DNA of 64,000 bases from an uncultured SAR86 cluster bacterium (GCA_902589965.1 CACIUX010000002.1:94998-158997), one strand, 5' to 3'. Positions 1 through 39,425 are shown, counted from the stretch's first letter. The notes: generated from the letters alone by a model not told the origin. A program made the numbers and translations.

Positions 1-903
1 AGAAATTTTGGTACGCCGAAAGCAATGACCGAAGAGGAAATTTTGGATGTAATAAAAAGATTTGCTTTTGTTGCAAAAATTGCCCGCGAAGCAAACTTTT
101 CCGGCATTCAGCTGCATTCAGCTCACGGCTATTTATTGTCAGAGTTTTTATCCCCTGATATCAATCAAAGAACAGATGCTTGGGGGGATTCACTAGAGAA
201 TAGAGCAAGAATTCATTTGGAAATTATCAAAGCCTGTAGACAGGCAGTTGGCGATGACTTTCCAATATCGATGAAAATGAATTCAGCAGATTTCCAAAAG
301 GGAGGTTTTTCTCACGAAGAGTCCATTCAAGTTGCGAAAATGGTCAGCGATGCAGGTTTAGATTTATTGGAAATTTCTGGCGGTACGTATGAAAAACCAA
401 GTCTTCTCGGTTATGACAACGTTGGCATGAATCCAAAAAGGATGGAAAAAAGAAAAGAGAGCACCATCGCTAGAGAGGCTTACTTTTTAGAATACGCAGA
501 TGACATCAAAAAAGCTATTTCCATTCCTTTAATGGTCACAGGTGGATTTAGATCCAGAACAGGGATCAATGCTGCTCTTGCAAATAATGCCTGCGAGGTT
601 ATTGGAATTGGGAGGCCTTTATGCGCAGATCCATATTCGCTTCAAAAAATGATCGATGGTGAAATTGACCAACTGCCTGATTACGAAAAAACTCTTTCTG
701 TTGGCCCTGGTTGGTTGTCCTCAAGAAGCCCATTCCGTTTAATTCAAGCAATAAATGCTCTTAGCTCGCAAGCTTGGTTTTACCTCCAAATTAATAAAAT
801 GGGTAACGGCGAAGATCCTGATCTAACAAAAAGGCCTTTCGCTGCTTTTCGAGAAATTGCAAAAATTGACTCAGCAGCTTTTAAAAAATTCTCTGAGACT
901 TAA
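1..903 (+). CDS. NADH:flavin oxidoreductase, Old Yellow Enzyme family (5' end upstream of window)
   Basis: The frame is open from nt 1 (RNFGTPKAMTEEEI...), so the ATG at 25 is internal. 'LHSAHGYLLSEFLSP' and 'IGIGRPLCADP' are typical OYE TIM-barrel motifs. Confidence 0.8.
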   Translation, partial: RNFGTPKAMTEEEILDVIKRFAFVAKIAREANFSGIQLHSAHGYLLSEFLSPDINQRTDAWGDSLENRARIHLEIIKACRQAVGDDFPISMKMNSADFQKGGFSHEESIQVAKMVSDAGLDLLEISGGTYEKPSLLGYDNVGMNPKRMEKRKESTIAREAYFLEYADDIKKAISIPLMVTGGFRSRTGINAALANNACEVIGIGRPLCADPYSLQKMIDGEIDQLPDYEKTLSVGPGWLSSRSPFRLIQAINALSSQAWFYLQINKMGNGEDPDLTKRPFAAFREIAKIDSAAFKKFSET

Positions 904-6450: not shown

Positions 6451-7383
6451 ATGGGTAAATTAATCGATGGCAAGTGGGATAAATGTTCTATCATCACCAG
6501 CGATGAAAAAGGTGCATACGCTCGTTTACCGAGAACGTTCGAAAATAATATTTCAGCCGATGATGCTGTCTACACTCCTGATTCAAACAGATATCATTTA
6601 TACGTAAGCTATGCCTGTCCTTGGGCTACAAGAGCGCTTATTTATCGGAAACTTAAATCTTTGGAAGATCATATATCTGTGGATGTGGTGCATCCCGATC
6701 TTCTAGAAGAGGGTTGGGCTTTTGATAACAGTTATCCTGGAGCTACTAAAGAATCCTTGTATGGATTCAAATTTTTAAGAGAGCTTTATCAAAAATCCGA
6801 ACCTAATGTGACTACGAGCGTGACTGTGCCTGTTTTATGGGACAAAAAAACAGAAACCATAGTTAACAATGAATCTTCTCAGGTTATTCGAATTTTTAAT
6901 TCTGCATTCAATGAATTAACCGGAAACAATGAAAATTATTATCCCGAGCATTTGCAAGAAGAAATAGACAAGCTAAATGATTGGATCTATAACTCGGTGA
7001 ATAATGGTGTCTACAAGAGCGGGTTTGCAAAAACTCAAGAAAGTTATGATGAAGCAGTGACTGATCTTTTTAAAGCATTGGATGAATTGGATCAAAGACT
7101 CGCAAAGTCAAAGTACTTAATTGAAGATACTTTAACTGAAGCAGATCTAAGGCTTATTCCAACATTGCTTAGATTTGATGTAGCTTACGTAACGCACTTT
7201 AAATGCAACATCAAAAGAATCATCGACTACAAGCATCTTTCACGATATGTTAACGACTTAATGACCATTCCAGCGATCAAAGATTCAACCAAGTTTGATC
7301 ACATAAAACGACATTACTATTTCAGCCATAAAGAAATAAATCCTTATCGAATTGTTCCCGCTGGCCCTGAGCTAATTATTTAA
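6451..7383 (+). CDS. yqjG: Xi-class glutathione S-transferase / glutathionyl-hydroquinone reductase (YqjG-like)
   Basis: The 'YACPWATR' Cys-Pro-Trp-Ala active-site motif is characteristic of Xi-class GSTs. The length of about 310 aa is typical. Confidence 0.8.
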   Translation: MGKLIDGKWDKCSIITSDEKGAYARLPRTFENNISADDAVYTPDSNRYHLYVSYACPWATRALIYRKLKSLEDHISVDVVHPDLLEEGWAFDNSYPGATKESLYGFKFLRELYQKSEPNVTTSVTVPVLWDKKTETIVNNESSQVIRIFNSAFNELTGNNENYYPEHLQEEIDKLNDWIYNSVNNGVYKSGFAKTQESYDEAVTDLFKALDELDQRLAKSKYLIEDTLTEADLRLIPTLLRFDVAYVTHFKCNIKRIIDYKHLSRYVNDLMTIPAIKDSTKFDHIKRHYYFSHKEINPYRIVPAGPELII

Positions 7384-28283: not shown

Positions 28284-29057
28284 ATGAGAAGAATAATTTT
28301 AAGTAGAAAAGGCTTTGATTCGTCTTCTGGTGGGGTGGCTTCTCCCATTTTTGCAGATGGAAGCTTATGTTCACTGCCGATTCCTTTCTCAGGACCGGCA
28401 CCGGATAAGTTTAAAGACGTCAGTGTGAACGGTATTCGATGTATCGATGCCCTCAAAGAATCCAAGGCAAAAAGTAAACCAAGCGACAATTGCCATTACG
28501 ATCCAAATCTCGAAACAGGACTTTTTGGACAGGCTAGCAGTTCACAATCCGAGTTACGTAACAATCAAGTTGGACCGGGCGATCTTTTTTTATTTTTTGG
28601 ATGGTTTAAAAATTATTCGGAAGGTGGAAGAGACTTGCATCACATTTTTGGCTGGCTTCAAATAGATAAAATAATCGATGGTAATGAAGCGATTCAACAG
28701 TACTTTAAAAATAAAAAAAAGATGCATCCGCATGCTTTTTATAGATTTAGCAATAATTGCCTTTACGTTGGATCAAAAAAATTAATTTTAGGAAATAAAA
28801 AAACTCCTCATAAAGGTTTTGGGCATTTCAAAAAAACACATAATGATTTAGTGCTAACAAAAGATCAGGCAACCCGTTCTGTTTGGCAATTACCAAAAAA
28901 ATACTTTGCAAATTCAGATCCTTTTTTAAACAGACTCAAGTGGATAGATAAGAATGAATGCATTACGCATTGCAAAGGTCGTGGCCAAGAATACATCATG
29001 GATGTGACGAACCACCCAAAATTAATCAGGTGGTTGCATCACATTTTCCAGGGTTAG
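28284..29057 (+). CDS. conserved hypothetical protein (possible Nmad3-like nucleotide-modification-associated domain)
   Basis: The N-terminal 'ILSRKGFDSSSGGVASPIF.DGSL.SLPIP' and 'GDLFLFFGWF' recall, from memory only, the Nmad3 family. It is the only plus-strand gene among minus-strand neighbours. Confidence 0.45.
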   Translation: MRRIILSRKGFDSSSGGVASPIFADGSLCSLPIPFSGPAPDKFKDVSVNGIRCIDALKESKAKSKPSDNCHYDPNLETGLFGQASSSQSELRNNQVGPGDLFLFFGWFKNYSEGGRDLHHIFGWLQIDKIIDGNEAIQQYFKNKKKMHPHAFYRFSNNCLYVGSKKLILGNKKTPHKGFGHFKKTHNDLVLTKDQATRSVWQLPKKYFANSDPFLNRLKWIDKNECITHCKGRGQEYIMDVTNHPKLIRWLHHIFQG

Positions 29058-29087: not shown

Positions 29088-29726
29088 TCAAACATACATT
29101 TTGAACTGATCTTCATCAAAAATCGGATCTAGAGACAACATTAATCTGTTTTCATATATGTTTGGAGATCGGTGAACAACTCCATTGAACTGACTCTGCC
29201 AAGTTCCACCTTTCAATAACGACCATTCGCCAGCTTTAAATTGATTCACTTTCTTTTTTTCTTTTAACGGAGCATCAAGATTTGTTCTGTCGTCAAAAAG
29301 TTTCCAATCAACATCGTTGTTTGCAATCCATTCGGTCCCACCACCAGAAAGTGTAATTAGCAATCTGCATGGAATTTGATCAACATGAAACCTAGGACAC
29401 ATTGGTTTATCAAGGGTTAAGAGTCTCACCCCTACATACTTACAATCTAAAGTTTGATTAAGCATGCCACAGCTTCCTTTTATTTGGTCAGCAAGCATTT
29501 TGCTTGCCTCAGGATCAATTGATCCCGGAAGAAATTCATCAACTATTCTCAAATCATCCAAAGACTGAATCCATTGAAGTTCGAGATCCTGTCTCGCATT
29601 TAGAATTTCTCTCCCTAAAGAATCTATATAACTTGATTGAGGATGAGCGACGCATACTAGTTCAACATCTTTTGAGTAGATATCTCCAAAACTTTCTAAC
29701 TTCTCACTGAAAACTGATTTCATCAT
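29088..29726 (-). CDS. DUF1826 domain protein
   Basis: 'CPRFHVDQIPCRLLITLSGGGTEW' resembles the DUF1826 core. It lies immediately downstream of the COG0523 GTPase. Confidence 0.6.
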   Translation of the reverse strand: MMKSVFSEKLESFGDIYSKDVELVCVAHPQSSYIDSLGREILNARQDLELQWIQSLDDLRIVDEFLPGSIDPEASKMLADQIKGSCGMLNQTLDCKYVGVRLLTLDKPMCPRFHVDQIPCRLLITLSGGGTEWIANNDVDWKLFDDRTNLDAPLKEKKKVNQFKAGEWSLLKGGTWQSQFNGVVHRSPNIYENRLMLSLDPIFDEDQFKMYV

Positions 29727-29741
29727 TTTTTTATCCCCAAG

Positions 29742-30947
29742 TTACTTCCATGCTGGAAATGGATCGTTGAAAGTAGACCAGTACTCTCTTCCTTTAAGAA
29801 CATCTTCCTCGCTCAAAAGACAAGCATCTAGAGCAGCAATCATTTCTTCTTTTTGAAGTTTTTGACCGATAAAGACTAACTCTTGACGCATATCACCAAA
29901 CGGCTCTACCCATTGTTTCTTAATGGATTCAAGATATTCTTCATCTTGCGGCCAATCTTTTTCTGGGACAGCCTTCCAAAACATCCCTGCAAAACCGTAA
30001 CGAGCAATTCCTCCAGCTTGACTCCATTGTCCGGCAAATTCCGGACGAGTAGCCAACCAAAAATATCCCTTTGAGCGTATTAATTTGCCAAATTTTTCTG
30101 TTCCGTGCAGAAAATTATGAAATTTTTCAGGATTAAAAGGTCTGCGTGCTTCATAAGAGAAACTAGAAATACCGTATTCCTCAGTTTCGGGTACATGTTC
30201 TCCCCTCATCTCCTTAAGCCAGCCTGGTGATTGCTGAGCTTTAGAAAAATCGAAAGAGTTTGTATTCAGCACCTCGTCGACAGCGATGTTGCCGTTTTCA
30301 ATTGGAATGATTTTTGCATCGGTATTAAGTGTTTTGAGAATTGCAGTTAAACGTTCTACTTCTCTGGAACTAACAAGATCAGTTTTACTGATTAGAATAA
30401 TATCTGCGAACTCCACTTGATCAACCAGCAAATCAGCCACGCTTCGCTCATCATCTTCACCCATTGATTCACCTGCATCTTGTAGGCTTTTTGCCTGATC
30501 GTAATCTTTAACAAAATTTACAGCATCTACAACGGTTACCATCGTATCTAATTTGGCTACATCGGATAGAGAAATCCCATCTTCATCAGCAAAAGTAAAA
30601 GTTTCAGCTACAGGTAAAGGCTCTGAAATACCAGTTGATTCAATAACTAAATAGTCGAATCTCTTTTCCTGGGCTAGTTTTGTTACTTCTTCTAATAAAT
30701 CTTCTCGGAGAGTGCAACAAATGCATCCATTACTCATTTCAACGAGTTTCTCCTCGCTGCGATTTAGAGAAACTTCGTTTTGAACGATTGCAGAATCAAT
30801 ATTTATTTCGCTCATATCGTTAACGATAACGGCAACCTTTTTATTTTCTCTGTTATTTAAAATATTACTCAGTACGGTGGTTTTTCCTGCACCAAGGAAC
30901 CCTGATAAAACCGTTACAGGGAGTTTTGAATTCATTACATTTTCCAT
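29742..30947 (-). CDS. COG0523-family metallochaperone GTPase (CobW/ZigA/YeiR-like)
   Basis: P-loop 'GFLGAGKTT', metal motif 'GCICCTL', 'ESTGISEP', and a CobW C-terminal domain. Confidence 0.85.
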
Positions 30948-30989: not shown

Positions 30990-31015
30990 TATCGCCCAAA
31001 ATTAATTGGGCGATA
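30990..31015 (-). terminator. 10-bp perfect hairpin (tatcgcccaa / ttgggcgata) just downstream of the receptor gene
   Basis: Read directly. No clean U-tract follows on the minus strand, so it may be an attenuator or a binding site instead. Confidence 0.4.
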
Positions 31016-31025
31016 GCATCACATT

Positions 31026-33347
31026 TTAGAATCGTAAGCTAAAGCGAAGACCTACGTTTCTGCCAGGTAAGGGGACCTGGTCTTTTACAAACGAATTATG
31101 ATTTCGTGCGGCTTCATCAAGAAGGTTTGAAGCAAAGAACGATAGCTTCAAATCAACATTAGGATCTAATGGAACCGTACCTGAAAGGGTGAAGTCCACC
31201 ATTTGGTAGGCACCAGTAGCAGTTTCATTTACCGCTAGCTTTGATTGCTCTTCAACGTCTTTAAGAGACAAAGTCGTTTTTAAAACGTCGTTGCTGTAGG
31301 ACACATCAAAGAAGTTCCTTGTTGGAGTCATTCTTGGGATGTAACCACCGGCAGCGAACTTACCTTCAACTGAATCTCTACCAAAGGAAACCTCAACCTC
31401 TCCGTTATCGACATCAATAATGGTTCCAAACTCTAGTTCATAACCAGTAAACTCAGCATCTTTTTGGAGATAGTCAGCTTTTATTAATCCACCGTGATCA
31501 TCGTGACCTTCTTCTTCATGATCTTCTTCGGTTTCATCTTGTAAGTAGATGTAATCGGTAATGTTATTTGCGAATACAGAGACGTTTCCAAACCAGCTGT
31601 CGATATCAAACTCAAGCGTAAGATCAACGTTATTGGATCGCTCAGCATTTAAATTAACGTTACCTGTTTCGAGCCTTCCGGTCGCTAAGTGAGGACCGTT
31701 CATGAAAAGCTCTAAAGCTGAGGGTGCTCTTTCCACAGAGGCTGCTCCAATTAGAAATTTTACATTCTCATCGATATCGTAAGTATAAGTTAGTGCAAGA
31801 CTCGCACTGGACATGTCAACATTATAAAAAGTCTGTTCACCATGCTCTTCTTCATGCTCGTCATGCTCTTCTTCTCCTTCATGCTCCTCTTCACCTTCGT
31901 GCTCATCATGCTCCTCTGTTTCAGTAAGAGATCCGTTTCTGCTGACTGAATCGTATCGAACCCCAAAATCAAGGTGATGATCAGAAAAATCCTTAGACAT
32001 GAAGTAACCAACCGTATATTCATCGGATTTTGTAGGATTCATAAAAGCTTCATGACCAACGATAGATTGATCTTCTTTGGCTAAATTAATAGAAATTTTT
32101 TGACCTAAGTTTGAAGTTGAAAGATCAAGAATAGTTCCGATCTCATAAGAATCATTTGAGAAAGTTGTTGGTCCTTCTTCACCGTGTCCATGCTCATCCT
32201 CATGCTCATCGTGATCTTCTTCCCCTTCGTGCTCATCATGATCTTCTTCGCCTTCGTGCTCATCATGGCCTTCTTCTTCTGCATGCCCTTCAGTAAGAGA
32301 GTAATCAGTTCCTCTTATAAAGTAATTAATTGACTTAACTGCTCCTGTATCAAAGTTATAAGCCCCCTGAACGTTTACTTCGTTGGAATCAGTCACAGAA
32401 AATATTCTTTCACCTTCGTGCTCATCATGGCCTTCCCCTTCGTGCTCATCATGATCCTCTTCACCTTCGTGCTCATCATGGCCTTCTTCCTCGCCATGAC
32501 CACCGTGACCTTCACCATGGTAAGGAATACCGTAATGAGTCTCTAAAATATTTGCAGATGCACCGATGTATCCCCAATCCTCGACTACCGAAAAACCAAA
32601 TTTATGAGACTCACGCTCGTAATCTGAATTCTCAAGGTACCCAAGTTCTTCGTCATGATGTTCTTCTTCTTCGTGCTCATCATGTTCTTCTTCGCCTTCG
32701 TGCTCGTCATGCTCTTCTTCAGAATGCATAACTGCTCCGTCGGGCACATCGTAATTTTCAAAATCGGTGTTTTCATAGGAGTAGCTAAAATTGATTCCAT
32801 TAACAATGTTAGTAATTCCAAAAGCTTCAGCTGTTCCCCTATTTACGGATTGTTTTTCAAAATCAACGTTGGCGTTTAACCCATCAAAATCTTGTCTCGC
32901 TATGGTGTTATCAACAATATTAATGATTCCACCTACACCACCGTTGGCGTATAAAAGTGATGATGGACCACGAACAACCTCAATTTGTTGCACGTTGTTC
33001 ATATCGATCTCAACAGGGTGATCAACCCCGATACCAGCAACATCTCGATTGACCATACCGTTTTTGAGAATTTTAATTCTGGGACCCGACAATCCTCTGA
33101 TAACCGGTTGACCTGTGGCAAAGCCATAGTCTGAATTGGCTACTCCAAGCAGGTCATCGATAGATTCACCTAGACTTGCTCTTCCTTGATCGTCTAAATC
33201 AACCCCAGATAAAACCTGAACCGGATCACCAATCTCACTTAAATTCTGATCGATTAAAGAAGCGGTAACTGTAACCTCTTCAACGTCATCAGCGATTAAA
33301 AATTGGGCACTAAGTAGCACCAATAAAAAATAAATATAATGTTTCAC
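31026..33347 (-). CDS. TonB-dependent outer-membrane receptor with five His/Glu-rich inserts (ZnuD-like)
   Basis: Signal peptide, plug domain ('QPVIRGLSGPRIKILKNGM', 'IEVVRGPSSLLY'), and C-terminal 'GRNVGLRFSLRF'. Repeated HDEHEGEE tracts are present. Confidence 0.85.
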   Translation of the reverse strand: MKHYIYFLLVLLSAQFLIADDVEEVTVTASLIDQNLSEIGDPVQVLSGVDLDDQGRASLGESIDDLLGVANSDYGFATGQPVIRGLSGPRIKILKNGMVNRDVAGIGVDHPVEIDMNNVQQIEVVRGPSSLLYANGGVGGIINIVDNTIARQDFDGLNANVDFEKQSVNRGTAEAFGITNIVNGINFSYSYENTDFENYDVPDGAVMHSEEEHDEHEGEEEHDEHEEEEHHDEELGYLENSDYERESHKFGFSVVEDWGYIGASANILETHYGIPYHGEGHGGHGEEEGHDEHEGEEDHDEHEGEGHDEHEGERIFSVTDSNEVNVQGAYNFDTGAVKSINYFIRGTDYSLTEGHAEEEGHDEHEGEEDHDEHEGEEDHDEHEDEHGHGEEGPTTFSNDSYEIGTILDLSTSNLGQKISINLAKEDQSIVGHEAFMNPTKSDEYTVGYFMSKDFSDHHLDFGVRYDSVSRNGSLTETEEHDEHEGEEEHEGEEEHDEHEEEHGEQTFYNVDMSSASLALTYTYDIDENVKFLIGAASVERAPSALELFMNGPHLATGRLETGNVNLNAERSNNVDLTLEFDIDSWFGNVSVFANNITDYIYLQDETEEDHEEEGHDDHGGLIKADYLQKDAEFTGYELEFGTIIDVDNGEVEVSFGRDSVEGKFAAGGYIPRMTPTRNFFDVSYSNDVLKTTLSLKDVEEQSKLAVNETATGAYQMVDFTLSGTVPLDPNVDLKLSFFASNLLDEAARNHNSFVKDQVPLPGRNVGLRFSLRF
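31490..32728 (-). repeat. dispersed intragenic coding repeats encoding HDEHEGE
   Basis: The 17-mer CCTTCGTGCTCATCATG (antisense of codons for H-D-E-H-E-G) occurs 6 times exactly, plus variants. The five clusters are at about 31490-31545, 31838-31922, 32172-32288, 32408-32520 and 32646-32726. Confidence 0.85.
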
Positions 33348-33383
33348 AATACCTCCAAAAAAAATTAAAAATTAAAATAAAAT

Positions 33384-33674
33384 TTAACTTTTTGGTGGTG
33401 CGCGAATAGAAAGTCGATTAGAAAAAAGGGTGATTTGCCTTGTCTGTTTTACATCAAGGAAATCGGAAAATATTGCTGTTAGTTGATGAGTGCTTTCGTC
33501 TTGAACGAATTCACTGTGTTCAGCTAAACAAGTTGAACAATCTTCACTAAGCTCATTTGAGTGCTCTTCATGAACATGATCACCGTGATCCATTTCAAAA
33601 TGCGACGTCTCATGCGAGATAATTCCCGCAGAAAAGACAATCGCAAAGAGAAAAGCAAACAGTTTAAATTTCAT
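33384..33674 (-). CDS. small secreted His-rich protein
   Basis: Signal peptide followed by 'SHETSHFEMDHGDHVHEEHSNELSEDCSTCLAEHSE'. It lies 36 nt upstream of the receptor gene on the same strand. Confidence 0.55.
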   Translation of the reverse strand: MKFKLFAFLFAIVFSAGIISHETSHFEMDHGDHVHEEHSNELSEDCSTCLAEHSEFVQDESTHQLTAIFSDFLDVKQTRQITLFSNRLSIRAPPKS

Positions 33675-35596: not shown

Positions 35597-36043
35597 ATGA
35601 ATGATCAAAAGAAAAATATTGTGATTTGCGATATTGATGGAACGATAGCCAATAATGATCATCGCCAACATTTTTTAGAAGGCAAAAAAGATTGGGATGG
35701 GTTTTTCTCAGATTTAATAAACGATAAACCAATTCATCAGATCATAAAGAAAGTTATAGATCTTGAAAGCCAAGGAAATAAGATTGTTTTTTTGACTGGT
35801 AGGCCTGAAAGATATAGAGCTGAAACTAAGCGATGGCTTGATCTTTACTTTAGCTTTGAATACTTCCTTCTAATGCGAAAAGATAACGATCGAAGAGATA
35901 AGCAAAAAATAAAGCTTGAGATATTTGAAAATAATTTTACGACTGATCAAATCACTATTTGTTTTGAAAATGATTTAGGATTAATCGAGCTGTGGAAGAA
36001 AATTAAATTGAATGTTGTTGATATCAATAAATTGATCAACTAA
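35597..36043 (+). CDS. HAD-superfamily phosphatase resembling the T4 polynucleotide kinase 3'-phosphatase domain
   Basis: 'ICDIDGTIA' (DxDGT nucleophile motif), 'FLTGRPE', 'T..WL'. I prefer the ATG at 35597 over the TTG at 35561. Confidence 0.6.
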   Translation: MNDQKKNIVICDIDGTIANNDHRQHFLEGKKDWDGFFSDLINDKPIHQIIKKVIDLESQGNKIVFLTGRPERYRAETKRWLDLYFSFEYFLLMRKDNDRRDKQKIKLEIFENNFTTDQITICFENDLGLIELWKKIKLNVVDINKLIN

Positions 36044-38618
36044 CTTGAGATGATTCTATAGCTTCTACCACATCATTCATATTATCTAATAATTTTTTAA
36101 AATTTGGCTTGAATTCATTAAATTCATTTAATTCTAAATCGCTAATAATGGTAGTTGGCCTTTTATGAGCATCTGGATTTCCTATCATTTCGATAAAATC
36201 AATCCAAGCAAGCCCTTGTTGAGGTGATTGAGGTAAATTTGTTACTTTGGGCATCTGAATAAAAAAAGTATTTTTTATTTCTTCAGAAATATCAATATTT
36301 ACATCAACGGGTTCTACATATGCCTGGATAATACCTTGGTCGTCCTTGAAAAAAATTTCTAGAATTTCTTTTATTTGTGGCCAATCGAGCCAATATATAT
36401 TTTCGTCGTAAGAACCTTTTTCAAGTTGAGCAGCTAATTCACTTCCTTTGACGTTAAGTTTTTTTGCAAGCTTTCTTATACTGTTCTCTTTTGCAGATTT
36501 AATTTCTTCTCCTTTAAACCATTGCTTTTTACATTGTTCTCTTATTAATTTGTCCCAATAATTGCTGCCAAAAATCGCTTTCAAATAATCATGAAAGGTT
36601 TTCATAAATTGAACTTCATATTCACCGGTAATTTTTTGAGGACTTTCAGTGTCTAAAATATGCTCAAATCTATTCAAAAAGATATCATCTTCATCTGAGG
36701 GAAGATTAGGATCATCCTCATAAACAAGCTTTTCTTTAAAACTAGGTAGTAGTTTTTCTATGATCAATCTTCTTGCTAAAGGATAAGAACCAGTTCCTCT
36801 CTTTAAAGGAGCCCCTTTATATACCCACCCCATTATGAGATTTTTATCTTCAGATGAAATCTTTTCTAAAGATAAGCAAAGTTCTGATATGTAAGGGTTT
36901 AATACTTGGATCAATTTTTTTGGAGAAATTCTATTAACTTCACTTCTTTTTTTATACGTCTCAAAACTTATTATTCGTTCTAAGGTATAAATTAATCCAA
37001 CAATAAAGTGTGTCTGCAGTGCTCCCAGGGTATCAACACTTTTCCTTTTCCAGGCATCTTCTATGCTTTTCCTAATTTTACTAAAATACAAAATGAGTAT
37101 TTCGGAAGCAAAATTACTTGTTTTTTTGAAATCTTCCTCATAATTCAGAAATCCTTTCTTAAAATTATTTTCTGCAGATAATAACTCACCGTTTAATAAA
37201 CCAACTTGAAGTTGTTTTGTAGGCAAGATACCTGATGATTCAGGTTGAGGAATAGCTACTGGATTCTTACTAAATGGAGATTTATCATCTTCTCTGAGCG
37301 CAAGGATTATAGAAGTTGCTAAATTCTCAACTTGTTTAAGACCAGTTGATTTCTCTCCAATAAGAAGCGCAACTTCAATTTTTAAGCTTACATCTACCTT
37401 TTTTTGATTTTCATTAACGTCAATAAATAATTCTGCTTCTTCTACCTGCGATAAATCAGGGTACATAGTCACAATAATTGGATGATCTAGTACTTGTTCT
37501 TCTTTAGTTCCAGAATAACCAAACAATCTATGTTGCCCATCGATCACATGAAACATGCCAGGTCTTCCTTGAAGAATAAGCTCCCCAGTCCTCCCAGAAC
37601 CTAATCTTTGTCTTTTAGTCCACTTCCAATGTTTTCTATTGCCCCTAAAACTAACCAAGACATTATTTGGAAATGGTTTGCGTGCAGCCTCTAAGTATCT
37701 AGAAATTTCGCTAATTCTTCTTTTTGTTAAGACTCTTTGATAATTTTTTGATCTACTTTCTCTAACAGAAGTTTCTTCGTCATCTAAATTATTAAGATTT
37801 TTTGATCGATTAATACTTTCAAGAAAATCATCTGTCTCACTCTCAACTACAAAAGCTTCTTTAGCTTTTCTATGTTCTACAACACACAATGGCATGATTT
37901 CTTTTGCTTTCGCCGTGAAAGTATATGCAAATCTATCTCTGGAACTATTATCTAGTGAAGTCTGCATTGCTCCAACTTTAAGCTCCTCATAAATAGGTTT
38001 TGTATTACTTCTGTACATTCCTAAAAACTGATTAAAAGAAAAATAGCTATTTTTTGAAATCTTGTAGCAATCTTCAAAATAATCCAACTCAGGATCTGAT
38101 AAATGCACAACGCCTCTTTTAGAGAATTTCTTTTGGTTTTCAATAGACACATTTTTATGTCCTCTAGTTGCAATGATCCAGATTGGAATGATCTCATCAC
38201 CTTTCGAAAAGATTGTTCTTATTCTCTGCTTAACATAACTTTTTTCTTTTATGACCTTATCAAAAGCTCCACCGATTGCTGCATTGGTATGTCCTCCTTT
38301 GCAACTATGTTTACATTCGATCATGATCAAAAACTTTCTCTCATTATGTTCAATATATCCCACCGCATCTTGTTGGGTTGTTTTCAGAGAGGGATGATCA
38401 TATGCTGTTAAATCATATTTAAACTCTCCAACATTAATAAACTTAGCGCCTAAATTTATTAGTAAAATTCTTGCATCTCTTTCAAAAAGGCTCCAACTTT
38501 CTCCCTTTTGAACATTTGTCCATCTTGGAATTTTTGGCCCAGTTCTATTGAAAATTACTTTATGGAAAGCCTTTGCTTCAATGGAGTCATTATATTTATC
38601 ATTAAACAAATCTGACAT
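36036..38618 (-). CDS. 860-aa fusion protein: N-terminal PD-(D/E)xK nuclease-like domain + DGQHR (DndB/ParB-like) domain + ~400-aa uncharacterised C-terminal region
   Basis: The D84...E101-C-K103 context ('QQDAVGYIEHNERKFLIMIECKH') fits PD-(D/E)xK. 'FHVIDGQHRLFGY' (aa 357-369, nt ~37527-37541) is the DGQHR signature. Confidence 0.75.
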   Translation of the reverse strand: MSDLFNDKYNDSIEAKAFHKVIFNRTGPKIPRWTNVQKGESWSLFERDARILLINLGAKFINVGEFKYDLTAYDHPSLKTTQQDAVGYIEHNERKFLIMIECKHSCKGGHTNAAIGGAFDKVIKEKSYVKQRIRTIFSKGDEIIPIWIIATRGHKNVSIENQKKFSKRGVVHLSDPELDYFEDCYKISKNSYFSFNQFLGMYRSNTKPIYEELKVGAMQTSLDNSSRDRFAYTFTAKAKEIMPLCVVEHRKAKEAFVVESETDDFLESINRSKNLNNLDDEETSVRESRSKNYQRVLTKRRISEISRYLEAARKPFPNNVLVSFRGNRKHWKWTKRQRLGSGRTGELILQGRPGMFHVIDGQHRLFGYSGTKEEQVLDHPIIVTMYPDLSQVEEAELFIDVNENQKKVDVSLKIEVALLIGEKSTGLKQVENLATSIILALREDDKSPFSKNPVAIPQPESSGILPTKQLQVGLLNGELLSAENNFKKGFLNYEEDFKKTSNFASEILILYFSKIRKSIEDAWKRKSVDTLGALQTHFIVGLIYTLERIISFETYKKRSEVNRISPKKLIQVLNPYISELCLSLEKISSEDKNLIMGWVYKGAPLKRGTGSYPLARRLIIEKLLPSFKEKLVYEDDPNLPSDEDDIFLNRFEHILDTESPQKITGEYEVQFMKTFHDYLKAIFGSNYWDKLIREQCKKQWFKGEEIKSAKENSIRKLAKKLNVKGSELAAQLEKGSYDENIYWLDWPQIKEILEIFFKDDQGIIQAYVEPVDVNIDISEEIKNTFFIQMPKVTNLPQSPQQGLAWIDFIEMIGNPDAHKRPTTIISDLELNEFNEFKPNFKKLLDNMNDVVEAIESSQVS

Positions 38619-38627
38619 AATTCAAAA

Positions 38628-39425
38628 ATGATAGTTAAGTGGGCTGGCGGTAAAAATTGGCTTTACAAAAAACATAAAAGTATCTTTCCTGATTCTTATA
38701 ATAACTATATTGAGCCATTTTTTGGAGGGGGTTCAATTTTTTTTAACATGTTTCCTAAAAAAGCTTATTTATCGGATGTAAATGAGAAGCTTATAAATCT
38801 CTATATCGATCTAAAGAACGATCCAGAAAGTTTGTTCCAAGGCGTAAACCGTCTTATAGAATCTCACTCAGACGAACAATATTATGCTGTCAGGGATAAA
38901 TTCAACAATTCAAAAAGTACATCGAGCGTTTATTTTCTCTACCTGAATAGAACATGCTTTAACGGGATCTACAGAGAAAATAGAAAAGGGGAATTCAATG
39001 TTCCTGTGGGCAGAAGAAAATCTTCCTACTTTCCTTTCACAATGAAAGATTTCCTTCAATTATCTTTTCAACTTAAAAACACTAATTTGCAGAACTGTGA
39101 CTTTAGAGAAGCTCTGAAAACAGCAAAAAAAGGAGATTTTATTTACCTGGATCCTCCTTACATTGAATTTGAGAAAGAATACGATTCTTTCAGAAGATAT
39201 AACGGAGTAGTTTTTTCAAAAAGTGATTTGGAAGAACTGGCTTTAGAAGCCAATAGATTAAAAGGGAAATGTAAAATTTTAATATCAAATTTTGATCAAA
39301 GAGGAGTCAAAGATTATTTTACTGAGAAAGAATGGAAATTTAAGTCCATCAAACAAATGACATATTTGTCAGGTAAAAAGGAAGGACGCAAATATATGAA
39401 TGAGGCCTTAATTTACAATTATTAA
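38628..39425 (+). CDS. Dam-family (D12 class) N6-adenine DNA methyltransferase
   Basis: 'KWAGGKNWL', SAM motif 'EPFFGGGSIFF', and catalytic 'YLDPPY'. Confidence 0.85.
   Translation: MIVKWAGGKNWLYKKHKSIFPDSYNNYIEPFFGGGSIFFNMFPKKAYLSDVNEKLINLYIDLKNDPESLFQGVNRLIESHSDEQYYAVRDKFNNSKSTSSVYFLYLNRTCFNGIYRENRKGEFNVPVGRRKSSYFPFTMKDFLQLSFQLKNTNLQNCDFREALKTAKKGDFIYLDPPYIEFEKEYDSFRRYNGVVFSKSDLEELALEANRLKGKCKILISNFDQRGVKDYFTEKEWKFKSIKQMTYLSGKKEGRKYMNEALIYNY

Follow-up and report, generated by a model that had tools for sequence, protein, structure and literature searches.

The DNA analyzed here is a stretch of 64,000 nucleotides (nt) from an uncultured gammaproteobacterium of the SAR86 cluster (GCA_902589965.1 CACIUX010000002.1:94998-158997), which in its full length is called the window below. 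An open reading frame (ORF) of 773 amino acids (aa) with a GTG start codon encodes a TonB-dependent receptor that carries five separate tracts rich in histidine and acidic residues, and it is directly preceded by a small ORF with the motifs of a translation-arrest leader. We consider it moderately probable that both genes form one unit, in which a ZnuD-like zinc receptor with five histidine-rich loops is controlled by arrest of translation on the upstream ORF. As judged from sequence comparison, the receptor most likely takes up zinc, which is very dilute in seawater, with copper as the main rival. SAR86 and its relatives rank with the most abundant heterotrophic bacteria of the surface ocean, where the zinc uptake of heterotrophic bacterioplankton is poorly known. 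Each element of the proposed unit has a precedent, while the combination and the link to zinc are, as far as we searched, new within the searchable literature.

The preliminary description of the window, made from the sequence alone, reported a receptor with a plug and a barrel that is interrupted by five His/Glu-rich tracts. Translation of the ORF bears this out: all five tracts are present verbatim, and both domains score above the Pfam thresholds (Plug, PF07715, 59.1 bits with a cutoff of 23.9; barrel, PF00593, 72.8 bits with a cutoff of 27). A C-terminal aromatic residue is present, as the protein ends in ...LRF. The tracts are 14–39 residues long and sum to 144 residues, which include 34 of the 43 histidines of the receptor (positions of all features are given in Table 1). 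In tract 4, the residues H489, E493, and H495 each show a conservation of 90% or more, and the base of tract 3, at the top of strand 7, contains the invariant residues E353, H355, and E357.

By sequence as well as by fold, the closest characterized relative of the receptor is ZnuD, in agreement with the comparison to ZnuD-type receptors made earlier. The ZnuD family (NF038289) is the top NCBIfam match with 217.7 bits, and ZnuD of Neisseria meningitidis (4rdr) is the top sequence match in the PDB, with an E-value of 7e-34 for the single sequence and 6e-57 for a family profile of 53 sequences. An AlphaFold2 model built on the family alignment (mean predicted local distance difference test score, pLDDT, 58.5; predicted template modelling score 0.62; strands 70–88) contains 22 barrel strands with periplasmic turns of 2–7 residues, and all tracts are located between odd-to-even strand pairs. 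A Foldseek search with this model ranks ZnuD (4rdr/4rdt/4rvw) best, followed by the haem receptor PhuR and the copper transporter OprC. The ZnuD structures (4RDR, 4RDT, 4RVW; Calmettes et al., 2015, PMC4557270) share the plug and the 22-stranded barrel, the Asp-His pair of the plug and a loop histidine with the window receptor, at about 18–20% identity in structural alignment. Because the loops of the model are of low confidence, loop parity was anchored independently on loop 3 of ZnuD. In the alignment, tract 2 begins opposite the solved cluster of this loop (241-HSHEYDDCHAD), which is the place where the His/acid cluster of ZnuD begins, and the remaining four tracts are each an even number of strands away. 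All five tracts are thus placed on the extracellular side by the model and its anchor, in loops L2, L3, L4, L6, and L8. Inserts in periplasmic turns or in the plug, which the preliminary description had named as an outcome that would contradict a metal-capturing surface, were looked for in the model, and extracellular loops were found instead.

The buried zinc site of ZnuD is formed by Asp99, His100, Glu340, and His499, and its flexible loops, with two His/Asp/Glu clusters on extracellular loop 3, were proposed to ‘fish’ for zinc (PMC4557270). HMMER alignments match Asp99 and His100 of ZnuD with D109 and H110 at the plug apex of the window receptor, and His499 with H553 in loop 7 (NGPHLATG). 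None of the three varies among 53 homologues, and all are kept in 16 relatives of only 25–30% identity. Candidates for a fourth ligand are the invariant E353 and E357, and also the adjoining H355. The loop-3 cluster of ZnuD has its counterpart in tract 2, but whereas the clusters of ZnuD are found in one loop, the arrays of the window receptor occupy five. Together, the arrays may form a flexible and strongly acidic ‘fishing net’ that binds and concentrates divalent cations at the mouth of the barrel. The cations would then be passed to the buried ZnuD-type site made of Asp109, His110, His553, and a putative fourth ligand, and TonB-driven movement of the plug would release the ion into the periplasm.

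The ORF upstream of the receptor reads MKFKLFAFLFAIVFSAGIIS-HETSH...-C46STC49-(41 aa)-R91APP94-KS-stop, and its N-terminus (MKFKLFAFLFAIVFSAGII) is hydrophobic and signal-like, as judged by eye. It is followed by an A/U-rich spacer of 36 nt and then by the receptor gene with its GGAGG and GTG. The same layout was found in 54 ORFs over 53 related loci and is present at every locus of at least 38% identity with an assessable upstream flank; across loci, conservation is limited to this combination of upstream ORF and receptor. In an alignment of 25 sequences the start methionine, one histidine, two cysteines, and (R)APP are the only conserved positions, with a mean column identity of 24%. Of the 54 ORFs, six contain no CxxC, and in the remaining 48 CxxC and RAPP are 40–45 residues apart; RAPP is located 1–10 residues, mostly 1–4, before the stop codon across the family. 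The upstream ORF diverges faster than the receptor, with identities to the orthologous locus L001 of 77 and 96%, respectively. In the SAR86 subclade of the window, residues 19–49 of the ORF are unusually rich in histidine (SHETSHFEMDHGDHVHEEH), while other clades have only one to four histidines in this part. A Porticoccaceae contig (L015, 3164..3505 and 6901..7185) contains two separate pairs of a CxxC-RAPP ORF and a TonB receptor within 7 kb.

This organization is similar to that of CruR (Bp2923) of Bordetella pertussis, which has a CXXC motif, a spacing of 45 residues and RAPP three residues from its end. CruR stalls at low copper, so that the receptor BfrG is expressed, while copper relieves the arrest and Rho then terminates transcription (Roy et al., 2022, PMC9426467). 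The arrest of CruR was shown in vitro, and upstream ORFs with a signal peptide and RAPP before TonB receptors have been reported as widespread (PMC12992588). In both systems, the first gene is small and encodes an export signal, CxxC and, after about 45 residues, a near-terminal RAPP, and the gene of a TonB-dependent transporter follows directly. By analogy the same logic would be expected, with metal relieving the arrest and the uptake receptor turned off. There are differences as well. The intergenic region behind CruR is 162 bp long, GC-rich and contains a Rho site, in contrast to the short A/U-rich spacer in the window, and the window unit has an additional invariant histidine, no downstream PepSY gene and a genetic context that points to zinc and not to copper. 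At E ≤ 1, the window ORF has no match to Pfam family PF11162 (DUF2946), which matches three of the 25 family members weakly (best E = 0.0034), and the listed 120 of 265 database homologues of the ORF carry no precomputed Pfam domain. Formal membership of the window ORF in DUF2946 was rejected for lack of a PF11162 match; by its motifs it is a CruR-like leader, not a DUF2946 member by the Pfam definition. This ORF, which the preliminary description missed, is probably the regulatory device of the receptor. In a SAR86E-like clade (L012, L014, L030, L034, and L041) QAPP replaces RAPP; since a change of Arg-Ala in the RAPP of B. pertussis CruR abolished function, QAPP may be either a weakened or a differently tuned arrest motif.

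On the RNA level, a hairpin is predicted at the junction of both genes, with an energy of -18.7 kcal/mol (z = -1.9), and an inner A/U hairpin followed by a U-run is found after the stop codon of the upstream ORF. Similar pairing is found in most loci with a short spacer, and in 31 of 37 loci the Shine-Dalgarno sequence has a probability of more than 0.5 of pairing with the Ala-Pro-Pro codons. When pairing is counted with anchoring and without gaps, the run length is 4.8 versus 3.3 in cross-locus controls, which is a modest excess. A ribosome footprint imposed at the stall site costs 12.7 kcal/mol of structure. Because CCNCC is inherently complementary to GGAGG, the pairing of the Pro-Pro codons with the Shine-Dalgarno sequence is mostly intrinsic and may be either exploited or incidental. 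No known RNA element was found by Rfam at E ≤ 1 between positions 30800 and 34300.

A stem-loop mechanism as predicted for the Pro-Pro:Shine-Dalgarno hairpin has been described for CutF of Rhodobacter capsulatus, a leader of the DUF2946 family; there the ribosome stalls at a C-terminal proline motif, and this opens a stem-loop by which the ribosome-binding site downstream is shielded (bioRxiv 10.1101/2025.02.05.636593; PMC9973294). CutF controls a copper-detoxifying oxidase (CutO) and its stalling is induced by copper, whereas the target in the window is an uptake receptor, for which reason the opposite sign is expected. On the analogy with CruR and the logic of an uptake gene, we commit to the direction in which stalling would turn the receptor on and metal would relieve stalling. 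When the metal is scarce, the ribosome would stall on the C-terminal RAPP of the upstream ORF and cover the 5' arm of the hairpin, freeing the Shine-Dalgarno sequence and the start codon of the receptor; the stalled ribosome may also block Rho or a weak terminator. In either case the receptor would be made. When the metal is sufficient, it would bind the histidine and CxxC of the nascent peptide at the mouth of the exit tunnel, by which stalling would be relieved and the receptor turned off.

Table 1. Features of the receptor locus and its surroundings. Positions are counted from the first nucleotide of the window; residues refer to the protein named.
Feature	Residues	Position	Strand	Remarks
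TonB-dependent receptor	1-773	31026..33347	-	GTG start
Signal peptide of receptor	1-19			
TonB-box-like motif of receptor				EEVTVTA
Plug of receptor	~37-141			
Barrel of receptor	158-772			22 strands
Tract 1	208-234	32646..32726	-	Loop L2, strands 3/4; two one-mismatch copies of the 17-mer
Tract 2	277-313	32409..32519	-	Loop L3, strands 5/6; three exact copies of the 17-mer
Tract 3	354-392	32172..32288	-	Loop L4, strands 7/8; two exact copies of the 17-mer
Tract 4	478-504	31836..31916	-	Loop L6, strands 11/12; one exact copy of the 17-mer
Tract 5	607-620	31488..31529	-	Loop L8, strands 15/16
Start codon of receptor		33345..33347	-	GTG
Shine-Dalgarno sequence of receptor		33352..33356	-	GGAGG
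Predicted RNA hairpin		33343..33406	-	Minimum free energy fold; RAPPK codons and stop region pair with U-run, GGAGG, and GTG
Upstream ORF	1-96	33384..33674	-	Hydrophobic N-terminus, His25, CxxC, 41-residue spacer, RAPP, Lys-Ser-stop
His25 of upstream ORF	25	33600..33602	-	
CxxC of upstream ORF	46-49	33528..33539	-	
RAPP of upstream ORF	91-94	33393..33404	-	
His-rich part of upstream ORF	19-49	33528..33620		
Inverted repeat		30991..31014	-	Perfect, 9 bp, ATCGCCCAA-TTAATT-TTGGGCGAT; 12 nt past the receptor stop codon, before zigA
zigA, COG0523 zinc metallochaperone GTPase		29742..30947	-	NCBIfam NF038288 equivalog, full length, 699.9 bits, cutoff 600
DUF1826 protein		29088..29726	-	Pfam PF08856, E = 4e-35
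Nmad3 (nucleotide modification associated domain 3) protein		28284..29057	+	Convergent with zigA-DUF1826
DndB-like domain protein and Dam-type methyltransferase		36036..39425		Divergent

The regulation of related loci bears on the identity of the metal. Zur boxes were sought in the window, with a 15-mer core at up to three mismatches and with a 23-mer scan, and in 79 loci. In loci of Colwellia, Thalassotalea, and Alteromonadaceae, the homologous upstream ORF is preceded at a distance of 6–49 nt by Zur boxes with 0–2 core mismatches. In Colwellia sp. RSH04, for example, GATGTTATAATATAACAAAC is found 6 nt ahead of the ATG. Perfect matches occur only twice in all 79 loci, both just upstream of a homologous upstream ORF. 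In relatives without an upstream ORF, Zur-like boxes directly precede the receptor. Among the relatives, those of the Alteromonadales and the Cellvibrionaceae carry Zur boxes. Scans for Fur boxes upstream of the small ORFs were uninformative. The Zur-boxed Alteromonadales relatives resemble ZnuK and ZnuL of Caulobacter (PMC4176598) and PA0781 of Pseudomonas aeruginosa (PMC8456098), which are Zur-regulated TonB-dependent zinc scavengers in the outer membrane of bacteria with a free-living or versatile life, but these are controlled by Zur alone, and neither multi-loop His arrays nor an upstream ORF are described for them in searchable papers. ZnuD itself has a Zur box and comes from a host-associated bacterium, whereas the window receptor belongs to a free-living marine bacterium and has an arrest-type upstream ORF and no Zur box. 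The preliminary description had left the choice between Zn, Ni, and Co; the ZnuD ligands, the ZigA neighbor and the Zur boxes of relatives narrow this toward Zn, while the CruR-like ORF keeps copper open.

A further-reaching proposal can be made only tentatively and may well prove wrong: the upstream ORF could be a zinc-sensing arrest peptide and thereby the first member of the CruR/DUF2946 class for a metal other than copper. It would regulate the receptor post-transcriptionally in the streamlined genomes of SAR86, SAR92, and OM60, where no local Zur box is detectable, and would be layered on Zur in Alteromonadales, with the five loops serving as a high-capacity cation antenna for the picomolar zinc of the ocean. 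We found neither zinc-responsive arrest peptides nor a paper on multi-loop His arrays in TonB-dependent receptors in the searchable literature, which leaves many subscription journals outside its coverage.

A recurring 17-mer in the tracts had been taken as a trace of recent duplication or gene conversion. Six exact copies of this 17-mer (CCTTCGTGCTCATCATG) are present (at 31894, 32224, 32251, 32413, 32437, and 32464), together with two that have one mismatch (at 32668 and 32695), spread over four different tracts, while 100 dinucleotide-preserving shuffles yielded no copy. Tandem Repeats Finder detects 27-nt (9-codon) units in tracts 1–3 and an 18-nt unit in tract 4, and tracts 2 and 3 share a 70-nt block with 91% identity. 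The peptide HDEHE is found ten times in the window receptor, and seven of these copies are encoded by one codon string (CATGATGAGCACGAA), which alternates both His codons and both Glu codons and has an estimated chance of a few per cent per copy given the local codon usage. Identical codon strings encode six of the 11 HDEHE copies in the sister genomes (n = 2), whereas the 96%-identical orthologue of L001 has eight different strings in nine copies, none of them with the 17-mer. Owing to this contrast, the tract codons carry the signature of a lineage-specific homogenization through duplication or gene conversion between loops, so the earlier interpretation of the 17-mer holds. The length variation that had been suspected along with it is also seen: among nine SAR86 orthologues, tract 2 measures 27–45, tract 3 32–47 and tract 4 32–36 residues. 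A 9-codon unit (HDEHEGEED-like) would thus expand, contract, and spread from loop to loop through recombination or gene conversion, with its composition kept by selection.

The ratio of nonsynonymous to synonymous substitution rates (dN/dS) is 0.01–0.05 in the tracts and 0.02–0.07 in the rest of the gene, to be read with the caveats that repeat alignments are ambiguous and that dS is saturated in distant pairs. Because the tract values are as low as those of the remaining gene, the amino acid composition of the tracts appears to be under strong purifying selection, which sets them apart from low-complexity sequence that drifts. Near-identical metagenome proteins (P0002–P0015; 589–704 aa, 86–95% identity) fuse tracts of different loops, by which two to six strands would be lost. 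These short forms all come from single short metagenome contigs, and contigs of the SAR86 single amplified genome AG-461-A21 end within the gene at the His repeats (L007 at residue 365, L017 at residue 296). Functional deletion was rejected as uncertain for these variants, since a collapse of the assembly is at least as likely; they are probable assembly artefacts, with real repeat-mediated deletions as the alternative. In practice, the tract repeats can be expected to break or collapse short-read assemblies of the receptor gene.

The receptor is 96% identical to that of the SAR86 single-cell genome AG-337-I17, and the gene order is conserved with other SAR86 single-cell genomes. A large protein database contains 6084 relatives at E ≤ 1e-10. 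Among the best 120 of these 6084, which are labelled Porticoccaceae and Gammaproteobacteria and for which the tract layout was judged, nearly all show the five tracts in the same places, at identities between 88% and 46%. The five-loop layout is therefore near-universal in these homologues. Loci were also found in SAR92/HTCC2207, Halieaceae, OM182, and some alphaproteobacterial bins. When cluster representatives at 50% identity were searched exhaustively, the 132 nearest full-length ones were found to carry no tract in 24 cases, one in 29, two in 40, three in 18, four in 16, and five in five cases, so that five loops are the top end of a continuum from zero to five and not unique to the window gene. 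Two to five such loops are present in distant relatives from cultured genera, namely Colwellia, Thalassotalea, Pseudoalteromonas, Psychrosphaera, Arsukibacterium, and Glaciecola (metagenome bin), and also in Rhodothermales and Hyphomonadaceae bins.

Several observations weigh against an arrest-controlled zinc receptor. The score of the receptor does not reach the 950-bit cutoff for curated membership of the narrow family NF038289; we regard it as ZnuD-like, not as ZnuD in the strict sense. The plug and loops of the AlphaFold2 model are poor (loops with a pLDDT below 50), and no equivalent of ZnuD Glu340 was mapped, as the single-sequence and profile alignments both skip ZnuD residues 262–473. 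The window has no 15-mer Zur core at three or fewer mismatches and its best 23-mer match, with six mismatches, is located elsewhere; likewise, no Zur box or other recognizable metal operator was found in the window or in the SAR86, SAR92, and OM60 loci. The characterized DUF2946-type leaders respond to copper, with a moderate effect of zinc on BfrG in B. pertussis (PMC9426467). The zigA-DUF1826 pair is variable: four of nine close relatives lack it at their loci, and so do all family members of greater distance. Concerning the hairpin, controls with shuffled spacers reach a mean pairing probability of 0.57 against the observed 0.74, and nine of 37 loci are individually significant. RNAalifold gives zero consensus pairs for a MAFFT alignment of 22 spacers, because the A/U-rich spacers are not alignable by sequence, and we claim no covariation support for the hairpin. 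Finally, the 3' half of the upstream ORF contains 22–27% C and 10–13% G, which leaves room for a mechanism dependent on Rho; together with the A/U hairpin and the U-run after the stop codon, this skew makes Rho-dependent or intrinsic attenuation possible.

If the unit were a copper receptor of the CruR-BfrG type, its CxxC would sense Cu(I), copper would relieve the arrest and the His loops would capture Cu(II). Poly-His tracts bind Cu(II) well, the upstream ORF has both DUF2946/CruR motifs with a spacing of 41 residues (45 in Bp2923), an export signal and the first position before a TonB-dependent transporter, and all characterized members (CruR and CutF) are copper-responsive. We nevertheless consider copper unlikely, since the receptor contains no cysteine and no Cys or Met-rich copper site like that of OprC, scores 47 bits for the TonB-copper model TIGR01778 (cutoff 472), conserves the zinc ligands of ZnuD and is adjacent to ZigA. 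OprC of P. aeruginosa (PDB 6Z8Q and others), a TonB-dependent metal-ion transporter whose genes often follow DUF2946 genes, accounts for most of the remaining top fold matches after ZnuD and PhuR, and ranks below ZnuD. In addition, the homologous units of Alteromonadales are preceded by Zur boxes and not by copper-regulator sites, and the invariant histidine which the upstream ORF family has besides CxxC suits the coordination of Zn. A receptor of broad specificity or for another ligand, for instance several divalent cations (Co, Ni, Cd, or Mn), a metal chelate or a haem-type compound, with loops that serve as cation concentrator or docking surface, is in our estimate quite unlikely. Arrays of His, Glu, and Asp are not selective among borderline metals, and the second and third NCBIfam matches are haem/haemoglobin receptors, but their scores of 107 and 91 bits are far under the cutoffs of 317 and 324 bits. 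The clamp of a plug histidine and a loop histidine is common to the haem receptors HasR and ShuA, and ZnuD was itself first mis-annotated as a haem receptor (PMC4557270); the Asp-His pair and the control by Zur boxes, however, point to Zn. The public label of the homologues, ‘iron complex outermembrane receptor protein,’ would agree with such a ligand but is a generic KEGG-style name and not a tested function, and no siderophore, haem or ABC-transport genes are conserved beside the unit.

Two other readings concern the individual parts of the unit. Instead of a leader, the upstream ORF could encode a functional protein that is exported and binds metal, for instance as a chaperone in the periplasm or as a partner of the receptor. 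Its signal peptide, the His-rich mature N-terminus in the SAR86 subclade (8 His) and its gene call in many assemblies would fit, but a protein of which only His, CxxC, and RAPP are conserved, with low column identity and faster divergence than its receptor, is hardly what this reading predicts, and RAPP always lies so close to the stop codon that the pattern is that of an arrest peptide. We give this reading little credence; in B. pertussis, complementation in trans failed (PMC9426467). The tracts, for their part, could mainly be a variable surface that evades phages or grazers through repeat-driven changes in length, with an incidental composition. TonB-dependent receptors often serve as phage receptors, near-identical strains have loops of different length, repeats recombine between loops, and relatives differ in tract number. 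This reading is very improbable given the low dN/dS of the tracts, according to which the composition itself is strongly selected. Moreover, the H/E/D/G composition persists in the same set of five loops at identities as low as 46% and recurs in distant lineages such as Rhodothermales and Hyphomonadaceae, which is not expected under diversifying selection.

If the reading as an arrest-controlled zinc receptor is true, a widespread class of zinc receptors is hidden under the ‘iron complex’ annotation, and its members form a natural series of zero to five His loops with which the ‘fishing-net’ model of ZnuD can be probed. Nascent-peptide arrest sensors of the copper type would then also serve zinc, possibly where the locus shows no Zur box. 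Carriers in the cultured genera Colwellia and Thalassotalea make the idea directly testable.

Downstream of the receptor, zigA follows directly and in the same direction, and the DUF1826 gene travels with it as a two-gene cassette. This cassette is found downstream of the receptor in L002, L003, L004, L007, and L042 and is absent from L001, L005, L006, and L020, where an Nmad3-like gene abuts the receptor. The Nmad3 protein gene of the window is kept in the same place in all close SAR86 loci. The inverted repeat between the receptor and zigA was not called in a scan for consensus terminators because no T-run follows; it is likely a terminator or attenuator before zigA, but could also be a protein-binding palindrome. 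Conserved downstream partners such as PepSY or znuABC were not found across the loci, and the downstream genes are clade-specific (a second TonB receptor, an RNase, LpxC, or phosphatases). In one SAR86 clade (L028, 10273..14962, and L032), genes for a second TonB-dependent receptor, a class-B acid phosphatase and a (zinc-dependent) alkaline phosphatase of the PhoA type come after the gene of the His-loop receptor, on the strand that it occupies. Upstream of the unit, an 860-aa protein with a DndB-like (DNA-sulfur-modification-associated) domain adjoins a divergent Dam-type N6-adenine methyltransferase, and this region may represent a DNA-modification or defence module.

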